From Patescibacteria group bacterium (GTDB lineage Bacteria > Patescibacteriota > Minisyncoccia > Minisyncoccales > Staskawiczbacteraceae): a stretch of 64,000 bases of DNA. This document shows positions 26,165 to 31,872 of the stretch, piece by piece (within the stretch, counting starts at the first letter, position 1; each line of letters starts with the position of its first letter). The stretch covers positions 36,243 through 100,242 of the forward strand of contig JAKLDQ010000001.1 of NCBI GenBank assembly GCA_022703425.1. Direction: 5' to 3'. The notes beneath the pieces are model-generated. The model saw only the letters and a program-made list of their open reading frames with translations, was not told where the DNA came from and did not search any database. The translations under genes were made by a program, and so were the position numbers.

Positions 26165-28252
26165 TTGTTTAAAATTATGCCTCGTAAACATCCTTTAGAC
26201 AAACTAAGAAATATCGGAATTATTGCTCACATCGATGCTGGAAAGACAACTTTCTCTGAGCGTCTTTTGTTTTACACCGGAGTTTCCCACAAAATCGGAG
26301 AAGTACACGAGGGAGAGGCAGTCATGGACTGGATGGTTCAGGAAAGAGAGAGGGGAATTACAATCACCTCCGCTGCCACGACAATGTATTGGAAAGATTA
26401 CCAGATAAACCTTATTGATACCCCCGGACACATCGACTTTACCGCCGAGGTTCAGAGGTCTCTAAGAGTTTTGGACGGCGCGGTTGTCGTATTTGACGGA
26501 GTTGCCGGAGTTGAGCCTCAGTCAGAAACAGTATGGAGACAGGCAGACAAATATTCTGTTCCAAGAATGTGCTTTGTTAACAAGCTGGACAGAATGGGAG
26601 CATCTTTCGACAAGAGCTTTGATTCAATTTTAAAAAAACTGACCCCGAATGCAGTTGCTATTGAAATTCCGATGGGTGTTGAAGAAAAAATGTCAGGTGT
26701 GATTGATCTGCTTAAAATGAAAGCATTGTATTTTGAAGGCGAAAAAGGAACAACAGTTGTAGAAAAAGAAATTCCGGAGGAATTTAAGGCAGAAGCTGAA
26801 AAATGGCACAAAATCGCAGTTGAAAAAATCGCAGGCGACGACGACATTCTTACAGAAAAATTTTTGGAGGGAAAAGAAATTTCTTTGGAAGAATTGAAAG
26901 CCGCTTTGAGGCGCGCAGTTCTTGCTTATAGGCTGGTTCCGGTTTTGTGCGGAACAGCACTGAAAAACAAGGGAGTCCAGCCCGTTTTGGATGCAGTTGT
27001 TGATTATCTTCCTTCTCCATTGGATTTGCCCGCACAAAAAGGAACAGATCCGAAAACAGCAGCTGTTATAGAAAGAAAGGCAGATGACAACGAACCGTTT
27101 GCCGCTTTGGTTTTTAAAATCGCAGCAGACCCTTATGTGGGAACTCTTACATATTTCAGGATTTATTCGGGAGTTTTGAAAAAGGGATCTTATGTTTTAA
27201 ATGCAAATACAGGAGAACAGGAAAGAATTGCCAGAATTTTGAGGATGCACGCCGATTCAAGGCAGGAATTGGACGAACTTTATGCCGGAGAAATCGGAGC
27301 AACTGTCGGATTGAAGGCAACAAACACAGGACACACTCTTTGTGAAAAGACAGCTCCTGTAATTCTGGAGAAAATCGTATTTCCAGAGCCCGTTATCGGA
27401 ATCAGAGTGGAGCCGAAAACAAAAGCCGACCAGGAGAAACTTATTATGTCTATCAGGAAGCTCACAGAAGAAGATCCGACTTTCAGAATCAAAGAGGACC
27501 TGGAAACAGGAGACACTGTTATTTCCGGAATGGGAGAACTGCACTTGGATATTATTGCCGACAGATTGAGGAGAGAGTTCCATGTTGACGCAAACTACGG
27601 AAGACCGCAGGTTGCATACAAAGAAACAATTTTGGCCGAAGCCAATGGTGAAGAAAAATATGTAAGGCAGTCGGGAGGAAAGGGACAATACGGACACGTA
27701 TTGCTGAAAATCAAGCCGAAAGAGAGGGGAGCGGGATTTGAATTCATCGATGAAATCAAGGGAGGAGCAATTCCAAAAGAATTTATCGCTCCTGTTGAAA
27801 AAGGAGTAAAAGAAGCAATGGACAAAGGAATCGTTGCAGGATATCCGATGGTTGATGTTGAAGTTACGCTTTATGACGGAAGCTATCACGATGTTGACTC
27901 ATCTGAATTCGCTTTCAAGATTGCAGGATCTATGGCATTCCAGAAAGCGGCCAAAGCTGCAAAACCGATCATACTTGAGCCGGTCATGAAAACAGAGGTT
28001 ATTACTCCGCCGGATTTCTTCGGACAGGTTATTTCTGATTTAAGTTCAAGAAGAGGAAAAATCGAAGAAACATCAGAAAGAGTCGGGATGAAAGTCATCG
28101 ATGTAATGGTTCCATTGTCTGAAATGTTTGGATATGCAACAGGATTGAGATCTCTCACAGAAGGAAGGGCGAGCTTTACAATGGAATTTGACCACTATGA
28201 ACAGGTGCCAGCTAATGTGGCACAAGAGATTATAGACGGAAAAAGACAGTAA
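26165..28252 (+). CDS. fusA: elongation factor G
   Basis: AHIDAGKTT; DTPGHIDF; NKLD; full EF-G domain set. Confidence 0.95.
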
Positions 28253-28268: not shown

Positions 28269-28294
28269 ATGCGCACGAAAATGCGCATTTTTTG
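28269..28294 (+). terminator. fusA rho-independent terminator
   Basis: ATGCGCACGAAAATGCGCAT followed by TTTTTT. Confidence 0.7.
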
Positions 28295-28310: not shown

Positions 28311-28630
28311 GCCGAACGGCTCACTCCGCCAGGGCACCAGTGCAATATTAGGAATCAGATTTAGAATACAAAAAATGAGCTGATTTCAAGACGCAGCGAG
28401 GAGGTTGTGCAAAGTGTTTGCACATCGACGAAGCTGTAACGACGAAATCAGCCATTTTTTGTATTCCCTTCGGGGCGGGCCAATTACAGCAATCTTCTGC
28501 GTTGCTCGTCGCGAACGATGCATTTCTCGCTGCATCAGTTCGCTTCCTCGCGCCTTGAAATATTGCTGTAATTGGCTCCGCTAAATTGATTCTAATATTG
28601 TACTGGCGCCCTAGGAGCCGTTCGGGTTTT
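28311..28630. repeat. ~320-bp nested-palindrome element: ~45-bp imperfect terminal inverted repeats enclosing two internal ~100-nt hairpin arms; MITE-like or structured RNA
   Basis: CCGAACGGCTCACTCCGCCAGGGCACCAGTGCAATATTAG versus CTAATATTGTACTGGCGCCCTAGGAGCCGTTCGG; inner pairs GAATACAAAAAATGAGCTGATTTC/GAAATCAGCCATTTTTTGTATTC and GGGCCAATTACAGCAAT/ATTGCTGTAATTGGCTCC. Confidence 0.5.
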
Positions 28631-28639
28631 GTAAAAAAA

Positions 28640-28671
28640 GAGCCCCGTAGTATACCTATGGGGCAAAAAGT
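28640..28671 (-). terminator. rho-independent terminator of the minus-strand DUF4177 operon
   Basis: minus-strand GCCCC-13nt-GGGGC followed by TCTTTTTTT. Confidence 0.6.
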
Positions 28672-28704
28672 CTTTGTCTTGCGACTCAGATACATATATT
28701 TACT

Positions 28705-29010
28705 TTACTCCTGACCGGAATATTCCTCGCCGGGAGCCAAAGCTTGGTAATTCTTCCAGAGATCCCTCCGCATCTCCTCAGGGGAGGGAAGTTCTGATAA
28801 AGATTCCTCCGCTTCCTCAATCAGAGTGTGTCCGACGGAGGATGGTGTTTGCACTGCGGACGGATCGGGAACTTCGCGAATCAAGACGTAAACGAGCTCA
28901 CTTCTTGAAATGGTGACTTTCCATCCGTTCTTTTCATCTTTGCCTAATATCTTCCGGGAAATTTCCGGAGGCGTATCGATTGGCAGACGAATCTCTTTTG
29001 TTTCTTTCAC
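28705..29010 (-). CDS. DUF4177-like paralog 4 (partial similarity)
   Basis: GWKVTISRSELVYVLIREVPDPS shares the GW...IxEREVP(E/D) signature with the three upstream paralogs. Confidence 0.45.
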   Translation of the reverse strand: MKETKEIRLPIDTPPEISRKILGKDEKNGWKVTISRSELVYVLIREVPDPSAVQTPSSVGHTLIEEAEESLSELPSPEEMRRDLWKNYQALAPGEEYSGQE

Positions 29011-29112: not shown

Positions 29113-29697
29113 CTATTCAAAGCCTCCGGGTTTTAGCTCCGAAAGCTGTCCAAGGGTCATCTCTCTTGTTTTGCTGTTCGGATTTACCTCCACTTTTCCC
29201 GGAGTTCTTTCAAAGTGTTCTCTGGGAATATCCCGGACAACAATTTCCTCGTCGGGCGGACGATCAAATTCGGGGATAGGTCCCCAAAATCTCTGGTCTC
29301 CTAATACTGGAAACCACCTGTTGCAACCAATTAAGAGATATTGTCCGCGTACCACTTTTACAATTTCTATTTCAGGTTCCTCTCCAATTTCTGTGAAATA
29401 ATATCCGTTGTCTGGACTTGTAGCCCTTTCAAGATTCGCCCAAACGGACTCCGGCTGTTCAATCCGGAATTTTCCGTCGTCACCGATAACTCTGCGCTCG
29501 ACAACCGTTTCGGGTGCGGGCGTTTTCGTTTCTGGAACTTCGCGCTCCATTAGAATAAATGAATCGTTGTAGAGAAACGAGCAGAGGGGTGGCACTATGC
29601 GCCATCCTTCCTTTGCCGCTGAATTCAGCTCTTTTGCCCAGTCATCGCTATCTGGACTGCCAAACGGCCGCAAGATTTTGTATTCTACCTTACTCAT
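29113..29697 (-). CDS. DUF4177-like domain protein with ~130-aa C-terminal extension (paralog 3)
   Basis: VEYKILRP...WAKELNSAAKEGWRIV...FILMEREVPETK; AAGGAG RBS. Confidence 0.55.
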   Translation of the reverse strand: MSKVEYKILRPFGSPDSDDWAKELNSAAKEGWRIVPPLCSFLYNDSFILMEREVPETKTPAPETVVERRVIGDDGKFRIEQPESVWANLERATSPDNGYYFTEIGEEPEIEIVKVVRGQYLLIGCNRWFPVLGDQRFWGPIPEFDRPPDEEIVVRDIPREHFERTPGKVEVNPNSKTREMTLGQLSELKPGGFE

Positions 29698-29720
29698 TGC
29701 AATCTCCTTTTTTTTATAGA

Positions 29721-30041
29721 TTAAAGCGGCCTTAGGCCAGAGTGCATTTGCCGGAAATGATCATCCAGATCACCCGGAAAACGCTTCTCGCAAAGCTGAC
29801 AATACATCTCGTATTCTGGCGAAGCCAGTTCCGGTAAGGCCGTTTCGGGAACCTCGCGCTCGAGAGTTGCAATATAAGCGAGAGTTGTCCCAGTTTCTCG
29901 AACCTTCGCTCCGGGAAAAACAGCTGAAAAAATAACCTTGTAGCCATTATTTGCCAATACATTCAGCGCTTTTTCGAACGATGTCGCGCCTTCTTCGGCT
30001 ACGCACTTGTATTCGTATCTTTTCATTGGGTTCTCCTTCAC
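29721..30041 (-). CDS. DUF4177-like domain protein with C-terminal C2H2-like zinc-finger motif (paralog 2)
   Basis: YEYKCV...FEKALNVLANNGYKVI...ATLEREVPETA; CQLCEKRFPGDLDDHFRQMH. Confidence 0.55.
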   Translation of the reverse strand: MKENPMKRYEYKCVAEEGATSFEKALNVLANNGYKVIFSAVFPGAKVRETGTTLAYIATLEREVPETALPELASPEYEMYCQLCEKRFPGDLDDHFRQMHSGLRPL

Positions 30042-30253
30042 ATTCCTGTGTCACAACCAGCAAACGCGTCGTGAGGTGTTGCGCCTTTCGGACGCTTGAA
30101 AACGAAGACGGTGACGTTCGGAGTGTGGCTGGTAATTGAGCGAAGTTCTGAAGAGGTTGTTAGCTCCCAGCCTTGCTCTCCAAACTTGTCGAGTTCTTTC
30201 TCAAGATCTTCCTGATCGTAAGTAAGTCGTTGACACATGTACTCCCACCTCAT
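30038..30253 (-). CDS. DUF4177-like small protein (paralog 1)
   Basis: MRWEYMCQRL...LEKELDKFGEQGWELTTSS...VFVFKRP matches the canonical DUF4177 pattern (WEYK...EELEkkLNeLGeeGWELV...FKRP). Confidence 0.6.
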   Translation of the reverse strand: MRWEYMCQRLTYDQEDLEKELDKFGEQGWELTTSSELRSITSHTPNVTVFVFKRPKGATPHDAFAGCDTGM

Positions 30254-30330
30254 TATTTTCTCCTTTCGAAAACGAGAAGACAGAGTACAAATAGGGCGAA
30301 AGCCATTGCAATCGTTTCTGCCATGTTCAT
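30253..30330 (-). CDS. 25-aa hydrophobic leader peptide MNMAETIAMAFALFVLCLLVFERRK, overlapping the next gene by TAATG
   Basis: perfect AAGGAGGG Shine-Dalgarno 5 nt upstream of the ATG; directly downstream of the near-consensus promoter. Confidence 0.4.
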   Translation of the reverse strand: MNMAETIAMAFALFVLCLLVFERRK

Positions 30331-30388
30331 AAAAACCCTCCTTGGTCAGAGAAATCCTAAAAAGATTTTCAAAATGCTAAGTGGCTGA

Positions 30389-30417
30389 TTTATATCATCT
30401 TTAATGGTTATTGTCAA
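30389..30417 (-). promoter_or_regulatory. near-consensus sigma70 promoter TTGACA-17-TATAAA on the minus strand, driving the island operon
   Basis: reverse complement reads TTGACAATAACCATTAAAGATGATATAAA. Confidence 0.5.
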
Positions 30418-30560
30418 TGTATAAAATCTGATGCTTTTTAGTTGTTGACTTGGCAAAAAATATAGGTTATTATTACTTTAAGTTTTGCTTTACAGGAATT
30501 TGTTAAAATTCCGAAATTTTTGTAAAGCAGAGGTTTTGTTTTTCCGACACCCAAAACGGG

Positions 30561-30589
30561 TTGACGGATTACAAAAAATATAATAATAT
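30561..30589 (+). promoter_or_regulatory. candidate tuf promoter TTGACG-17-TAATAT
   Basis: read directly; ~90 nt upstream of the tuf ATG; a second candidate TTGACT-17-TATTAT lies at 30445-30473. Confidence 0.35.

Positions 30590-30678: not shown

Positions 30679-31872
<1,194 letters not shown>

Follow-up and report, generated by a model that had tools for sequence, protein, structure and literature searches.

A candidate membrane micropeptide at the head of an antisense DUF4177 cassette between fusA and tuf in a Patescibacteria bacterium

Small membrane proteins are systematically overlooked by annotation, and almost nothing is known of them in the uncultured, reduced-genome Patescibacteria. 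KdpF, the small hydrophobic product of the first cistron of kdpFABC in E. coli, joins the membrane complex that is encoded downstream of it. AcrZ, MgtS, MgrB and YohP of the enterobacteria are mostly encoded by monocistronic genes and have membrane proteins as their partners. The type I toxins (TisB, IbsC, ShoB, Ldr, Fst and Hok) are the products of stand-alone genes whose translation is curbed by antisense RNA and by folding of the mRNA. A small protein of another kind is sP36 of M. mazei, a soluble hexameric protein of 61 amino acids (aa) that a membrane protein recruits to the membrane (PMC10714827). The present work concerns an open reading frame (ORF) of 25 codons in a stretch of 64,000 nucleotides (nt) of Patescibacteria DNA (contig JAKLDQ010000001.1); this whole stretch is called the window. 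The ORF lies on the minus strand at the head of five cistrons that run antisense between fusA and tuf, and it is followed directly by a gene for a 71-aa protein related to the domain family DUF4177. Judging from the sequence, it is most likely a genuine, unannotated gene for a single-pass membrane micropeptide. The whole reading, in which an accessory membrane micropeptide is the first cistron of a clade-specific, Shine-Dalgarno (SD)-dependent operon of sP36-like DUF4177 genes, is given a probability of about 0.55.

The peptide resembles each of the described systems in part. It shares with KdpF a length of ~25-30 aa, a single transmembrane (TM) helix, a place as tightly packed first cistron and the fact of having long been unannotated. 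However, the proteins encoded downstream here are small, soluble and of DUF4177 type (inspection of their translations revealed no long hydrophobic stretch), and the sequences are unrelated. Like AcrZ, MgtS, MgrB and YohP it is an unannotated single-TM protein of <50 aa, but those proteins act by binding larger membrane partners, whereas the partner proposed here is a soluble DUF4177 protein, and there is no homology. The type I toxins are alike in length, in the single hydrophobic helix and in the charged end; the peptide differs from them in its strong SD, its position at the head of a five-cistron operon, and the lack of a supported antisense RNA and of family hits. Coupled upstream ORFs (uORFs) and leader peptides likewise have a short leader ORF whose stop runs into the following start, with a hairpin covering that start codon, but there is no terminator or antiterminator here, and the hydrophobicity of the peptide, which is not needed for pure coupling, recurs across lineages. 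With regard to sP36, which is a small soluble membrane-docking protein, the 71-aa protein encoded next to the peptide aligns over the full length of the NCBIfam Sp36 profile (Sp36_fam, NF053529; E 2.5e-8) and scores 33.7 bits, short of the cutoff (50). The docking partners of sP36 are AmtB1 and GlnK1, and no TM micropeptide has been reported alongside it (PMC10714827); neither amtB nor glnK was seen beside this cassette.

More unusual than the peptide itself is the SD-dependent, hypervariable antisense cassette between fusA and tuf. If the peptide and the DUF4177 protein act together, they would offer a first route to the function of the widespread but uncharacterized DUF4177 domain, and the cassette would also illustrate selective SD-dependent translation in a genome without SDs on its own genes. 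If they do not act together, the peptide is simply another unannotated small membrane protein.

The peptide ORF, its signals and its junction with DUF4177

The initial annotation described a near-consensus promoter on the minus strand, a perfect SD with a spacing of 5 nt and a hydrophobic 25-aa ORF with a single TM helix and a basic tail, and all of these elements were confirmed (Table 1). The promoter agrees with the consensus at 11 of 12 positions and has an extended -10 element. It is missing from the list of the promoter scanner solely because the scanner demands T at the last base of the -10 element, which here is A. A TTGAC(A/G)-17-TAnnnT promoter is found at the same position in eight related cassettes (L007, L011, L014, L095, L097, L100, L103 and L005). 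The leader before the SD of the peptide is ~45 nt long. The fold of the whole leader RNA is ordinary (z -0.45) and folding over the SD itself is weak, with a hairpin of -10.3 kcal/mol (z -0.96). AAGGAGGG occurs only once on the minus strand of the window and is the strongest SD within it. That the peptide is strongly expressed, as the initial annotation held, is suggested solely by these consensus motifs. The peptide has an 18-residue hydrophobic stretch with a maximum 15-residue Kyte-Doolittle mean of 3.09; in its predicted topology the N-terminus lies outside and the basic C-terminus inside. Searches of Pfam, NCBIfam, PADLOC and PHROGs gave no family match for it. Three further metagenome assemblies of this organism contain identical DNA, and the ORF is therefore not an assembly artefact. 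The source habitats are activated sludge and anaerobic digesters (samples ENA ERZ761563, JGI 3300010429 and 3300009838).

Could such an ORF arise by chance? The 135-nt leader was shuffled 20,000 times with its dinucleotides preserved, a conservative procedure because the T-rich composition, rich in hydrophobic codons, is kept. An SD with a start codon was present in 1,293 of the shuffles; in 532 of these the ORF reached 20 codons or more, in 133 of those 532 it stopped no more than 25 nt from the next start, and 5 (2.5e-4) were TM-like as well. The peptide ORF with its SD and overlap is more than chance. A further argument is provided by the distribution of SDs. An SD core (AGGAG, GGAGG or GAGGT at -20 to -4) is present, as AAGGAG(A/G), in all five cassette cistrons but in only one of 59 host genes, the upstream regions of which are A/T-rich, and every related cassette shows equally strong SDs. 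By the standard of the cassette, in which the cistrons are SD-led while those of the host are not, the peptide ORF qualifies as a gene.

At its end the peptide ORF runs into the DUF4177 gene, since the last A of its TAA stop is the A of the ATG at 30253 (TAATG). Other gene callers place the DUF4177 start at Met6, giving a 66-aa protein (P0001), and that choice would abolish the overlap. An exhaustive HMMER search retrieved ~20 short homologues with 36-53% identity, which align from query residue 1-3 and have the common N-terminus M-(K)-K-W-E-Y-M-C-Q-R-L. Because of this alignment, and because AAGGAGA stands 6 nt upstream, 30253 is the real start and the overlap proposed in the initial annotation is real. 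The codons of the basic tail E-R-R-K, GAA AGG AGA AAA, double as the SD of the DUF4177 gene. Peptide codons V15-F21 form the 5′ arm of a hairpin with the first five DUF4177 codons (-18.5 kcal/mol, z -4.24). Only one of 200 shuffles was equally stable, a significance that is somewhat inflated because the segment was picked after the longer fold had been viewed. No terminator lies between the peptide ORF and the DUF4177 gene, and by eye neither a slippery site for a programmed frameshift fusing the two nor a run of regulatory codons in the peptide ORF was seen.

A hairpin with its 5′ arm inside the peptide ORF, together with TAATG, fits the classical arrangement for translational coupling. Ribosomes may load at AAGGAGGG and translate the 25 codons, and while translating they would open the hairpin whose stem contains the DUF4177 start codon. 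After stopping at TAA they would start again at the overlapping ATG, and the peptide and the first DUF4177 protein would thus be made together. Once translated and inserted into the membrane, as these sequence features suggest, the peptide might serve there as a partner of the soluble DUF4177 protein or proteins, or might tether them. This role is speculative and drawn by analogy; it is favored because of the match to the Sp36 profile and the precedent of membrane recruitment of sP36.

Related cassettes and the competing explanations

Eleven distinct cassettes with readable upstream DNA, the window included, were compared. In four of the 11, SD-led small membrane ORFs follow the promoter and precede the first DUF4177 gene (Table 1). 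The extra leader length of these carriers is almost wholly taken up by the ORFs, each of which has its own SD. The recurrent feature is the architecture, a hydrophobic helix and then a K/R-rich segment, and the K/R-rich segment is also found where the next SD does not dictate it (peptide 1 of L007 and the peptide of L011). T is enriched at second codon positions (0.48 versus 0.28 and 0.34), a circular measure since the ORFs were chosen as hydrophobic. The protein collection holds one of the peptides only, as a singleton. The two peptides of L007 are in one frame and are separated by TAA and four codons; this pair and the intact 64-aa ORF of L100 would allow a two-TM ancestor. The 64-aa ORF (L100 523-717, L101 420-614) precedes a DUF4177 gene of the same subfamily, P0013, outside the fusA-tuf context, and the ORF and P0013 have the same ribosome-binding context, ttgaAAGGAGAaacgt.

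A number of observations weigh against the peptide being a translated partner of DUF4177. The initial annotation looked to conservation of the peptide together with DUF4177 cassettes, and this holds only in part. Small membrane ORFs are present in three other cassettes but are missing in seven of the 11 (L014, L095, L096, L097/98, L099, L005/6 and L103/4), where the promoter and SD lead directly into DUF4177 (in L097, a soluble 73-aa protein). Absence is least secure in L099, where the upstream sequence amounts to just 44 nt, and L102 (~75 nt) was excluded from the set for its short upstream sequence. The peptide is therefore dispensable for the expression or function of DUF4177; it is an optional, accessory part of the cassette, outside known families. 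The carriers are scattered on the EF-G tree. Pairwise Smith-Waterman scores of the peptides against shuffles are marginal (p 0.02-0.18), which leaves common descent unproven, and the copies are identical within each lineage. Translational coupling, also proposed in the initial annotation, agrees with the overlap and the hairpin in the window, but this hairpin is lineage-specific, without a counterpart in L007 (z +0.73). The ERRK tail is partly a by-product of the downstream SD, and the rarity of SDs in host genes leaves the efficiency of SD-led translation in this organism open to doubt. Finally, NCBIfam 'Sp36' and M. mazei sP36 are equated by name only.

The absence of the ORF from seven cassettes and its patchy occurrence on the EF-G tree would be expected if the ORF were fortuitous or the decaying remnant of an ancestral two-TM gene that is eroding, in which case the window ORF would perhaps be translated but functionless. 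A series can be imagined from the intact ORF in L100 (64 aa), through the split one in L007 (29 + 36 aa) and the single helix in the window and L011, to loss elsewhere. The shared frame of the L007 peptides, the intact two-TM ORF at the same position in L100 and the lack of demonstrable sequence conservation among the peptides all agree with it. However, each retained ORF keeps a strong, well-spaced SD and stops at the next start or close to it, and the L007 stop sits inside the new SD (TAAGGAG) of the second peptide, which looks adapted. Unselected ORFs in AT-rich leaders should also gain stops fast, and the chance test speaks against a fortuitous ORF; such decay, and the series with it, is considered unlikely. 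The unconserved peptide sequence would also suit a purely cis-acting uORF, the translation of which opens the hairpin and sets the rate of DUF4177 synthesis while the peptide product is irrelevant. The stop/start overlap and a stable hairpin over the DUF4177 AUG, flanking its SD, are consistent with this, but coupling needs no hydrophobicity, and yet all five ORFs, from four lineages, are TM-like with a basic segment. In addition, L007 is without the hairpin, the ORFs of L011 and L100 do not overlap the next gene, and seven lineages express DUF4177 straight from an SD without a uORF. A role purely in cis is improbable.

The initial annotation noted that peptides of this shape are typical of type I toxins, and both size and shape do correspond. 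A type I toxin is nevertheless unsupported: the peptide is the first cistron of a five-cistron operon with the strongest SD and not a repressed stand-alone gene, and it has no match to a toxin family. A promoter-like site antisense to the 3′ end of the ORF is probably fortuitous. It is the only such site antisense to the ORF, promoter-like sites as a whole occur at chance level (6 found versus 4.2 expected in shuffles), and its TTGACA corresponds to the Cys-Gln codons tgtcaa read on the opposite strand; in L007 and L011 these codons are tgccaa. It has also been considered whether the cassette is a conflict module, in which a membrane-damaging toxin (type I- or holin-like) is countered by DUF4177, or an immunity peptide acts against a bacteriocin-like DUF4177 protein. 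Near-identical strains differ in their hypervariable DUF4177 domains, as would fit such a module, and the seven lineages with DUF4177 but without the peptide would fit loss of a toxin that left an orphan antidote. A DUF4177 protein, PEG 446, has been reported to have bacteriocin-like activity (PMC11322243), although a single study, on a distant member of the family, is the source of this evidence. Against a conflict module stand the organization, which is unlike that of type I loci also in having no credible or conserved antisense RNA promoter, the lack of any toxin, defense or phage family match, and the DUF4177 proteins of the cassette, which have no signal or leader peptide; it is very improbable. 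A wider proposal, likewise improbable, is that one or more TM micropeptides and hypervariable sP36-like DUF4177 proteins make up an undescribed two-part small-protein system of Parcubacteria. It would consist of a receptor, anchor or toxin with fast-diversifying soluble partners, would be SD-dependent in a genome that otherwise makes no use of SDs, would be placed antisense in the fusA-tuf core of the translation-gene cluster, and would have its output tied to translational state or to host/phage conflict.

The antisense cassette and its setting

The cassette, flanked by fusA (26165-28252, +) and tuf (30679-31872, +), encodes in order the peptide, the 71-aa DUF4177 protein, a 101-aa, a 194-aa and a second 101-aa protein. 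The cassette has a GC content of ~0.48, compared with 0.40-0.44 for the flanking genes; that of the divergent promoter region is 0.32. No Rfam family was found within the cassette. A 115-aa ORF at the cassette end (28348-28695, -) has no proper SD and no family hit, is uncalled in the JGI contig and is probably not a gene; the terminator-like hairpin of Table 1 comes after it.

Table 1. Features of the cassette in the window, and small membrane ORFs of related cassettes (RBS, ribosome-binding site)
Feature	Position or cassette	Strand	Details
sigma-70-type promoter	30389..30417	-	TTGACA-17 nt-(TGa)TATAAA, read directly from the sequence; -35 TTGACA 30417-30412, 17-nt spacer, TG 30397-30396, -10 TATAAA 30394-30389
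Leader motif	30365..30372	-	TTGAAAAT, degenerate second copy of the -35-like octamer TTGACAAT
SD of peptide ORF	30336..30343	-	AAGGAGGG, TTTTT (5 nt), then ATG 30330
Peptide ORF, 25 codons	30253..30330 (stop included)	-	MNMAETIAMAFALFVLCLLVFERRK; one predicted TM helix (~A4-F21) and ERRK tail; RBS AAGGAGGG
Junction hairpin	30238..30289	-	DUF4177 AUG in stem, most of the DUF4177 SD in apical loop
SD of first DUF4177 gene	30259..30265	-	AAGGAGA, within the last codons of the peptide (E22-R24), 6 nt before 30253
Promoter-like site antisense to peptide 3′ end	30230..30259	+	TTGACA-18 nt-TATTTT; 10/12 matches
First DUF4177 gene	30038..30253	-	71 aa, MRWEYMCQRL...; start overlaps peptide stop (TAATG)
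Second cassette gene	29721..30026	-	101 aa from ATG 30026; DUF4177-like with Cys/His motif; SD GAAGGAGAA
Third cassette gene	29113..29697	-	194 aa; DUF4177-like N-terminus; SD AAAGGAGA
Fourth downstream cassette gene	28705..29010	-	101 aa; GTG start; SD AAAGGAGAA
Terminator-like hairpin	28272..28287	-	far end of cassette, beside fusA stop; weak palindromic Rfam hits there
Peptide 1	L007-L010		MSFLSVSAIVLGAVALGLFLWLQFTKKEK, 29 aa, TM; RBS CAGGAGA
Peptide 2	L007-L010		MKYVVKVVVNVAVVLFLLAFISLLFCIQPITKEKKS, 36 aa, TM; ATGA overlap with DUF4177 start; RBS TAAGGAG
Peptide	L011-L013		MDPVSVFALVLSGLCLFFGYVLGKEKEWSTLQ, 32 aa, TM; RBS AAGGAG
Peptide	L100/L101		64 aa, two TM helices; different context, after ClpB-like gene; RBS AAGGAGA

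The initial annotation spoke of an island. All readable contigs with a subfamily member have it antisense between tuf and fusA, with the exceptions of L100/L101 and L005/L006. The contigs with the fusA-tuf context (L007-L010, L011-L013, L014, L095, L096, L097/98, L099, L102 and L103/104) encode EF-Tu 90-94% and EF-G ~85% identical to those of the window, and on a tree of EF-G C-termini, built from a short alignment and without support values, the carriers of the cassette form one clade. The number of genes per cassette varies from 1 to 5. By these comparisons the island is a clade-conserved locus at the fusA-tuf site and not a recent insertion. The 2.4-kb cassette gave no blastn match in the phage and plasmid collections, and no relatives were found in IMG/VR with a profile from a 7-sequence subset. 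PADLOC had no hit to the cassette and PHROGs marginal hits only. The cassette was present at none of the best 80 tuf loci of the GTDB species genomes; the closest of those genomes by EF-Tu belong to Candidatus Nealsonbacteria and Paceibacterota (79%), which makes the host a Parcubacteria-like member of the Patescibacteria. Word-index searches with the 71-aa and 194-aa proteins as queries returned self-matches only, and an exhaustive search was needed to reach the subfamily. For locus scanning the first alignment was too diverse, and the 7-sequence subset found metagenome loci but nothing in the GTDB species genomes.

The 71-aa protein matches Pfam PF13783 with an E of 5e-5 and 23.8 bits, below the cutoff of 25. 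Its sequence is clearly DUF4177/Sp36-related, and the protein is a firm member of the 'MKKWEYMCQRL...FFKREIPEPP' subfamily. Modeling gave a small beta-alpha-beta-beta domain with a predicted local distance difference test (pLDDT) score of 79. The model has no significant structural neighbor in the PDB (best E 0.095), and the sequence search found no solved relative. Residues 27-57, the GWEL...FKR part, match up to 13 repeats in many proteins of 400-1,800 aa (P0003-P0146), and one secreted-looking protein, P0027, has four tandem DUF4177 repeats, which indicates that the domain exists also as long repeat arrays. Between L007 and L008 there is 100% identity over ~1,690 nt comprising tuf, the leader and both TM peptides. 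Exactly at the DUF4177 start codon identity falls to ~60% and stays there through the domain; it recovers to 92-98% in the C-terminal tail and falls again in the second DUF4177 gene. This pattern (L007 3989-4158 and 4399-4510) is one of mosaic or hypervariable domains with indels and is not like that of a diversity-generating retroelement. The C-terminal tails are also modular: a 145-aa NCBI protein, P0149, combines segments of two cassette proteins of the window (29113-30026), namely 'VVERRVIG(D/E)DGK(F/M)RIE' from the 194-aa protein and 'C..C....DDHFR..H.G' from the 101-aa protein.

The leader motif TTGAAAAT, together with the octamer TTGACAAT that it resembles, may be an operator. No usable -10 lies downstream of this second copy in the transcribed leader. 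In L007, L011, L014, L099 and L103 a second TTGACAA(T/G) precedes the first start codon by 28-45 nt, and the leader of L096 has tandem copies of the octamer at -73/-65. On the plus strand, divergent from the cassette promoter, two promoter-like sites lie upstream of tuf (30445-30473, TTGACT-17-TATTAT; 30561-30589, TTGACG-17-TAATAT). Because the antisense cassette intervenes, tuf is probably transcribed separately from fusA here.

The space between fusA and tuf is occupied by other genes as well. In L103 (380-1065) and L104 (143-828) three small genes separate tuf from the antisense DUF4177 gene, and one encodes a homologue of HigB/ParE-like toxins. Many other Patescibacteria (L015-L060) have an unusually long fusA-tuf spacer of 400-1,500 nt. 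Several of these spacers contain a gene on the same strand for a protein of ~70-135 aa with the N-terminal motif '..GGKFIFVE.GKP..VV.S..EY', and eight such proteins end in EDLPF, EDLPL or EDLPYL. The clade of the window has no '..GGKFIFVE' gene in the spacer, and the antisense cassette stands in its place.

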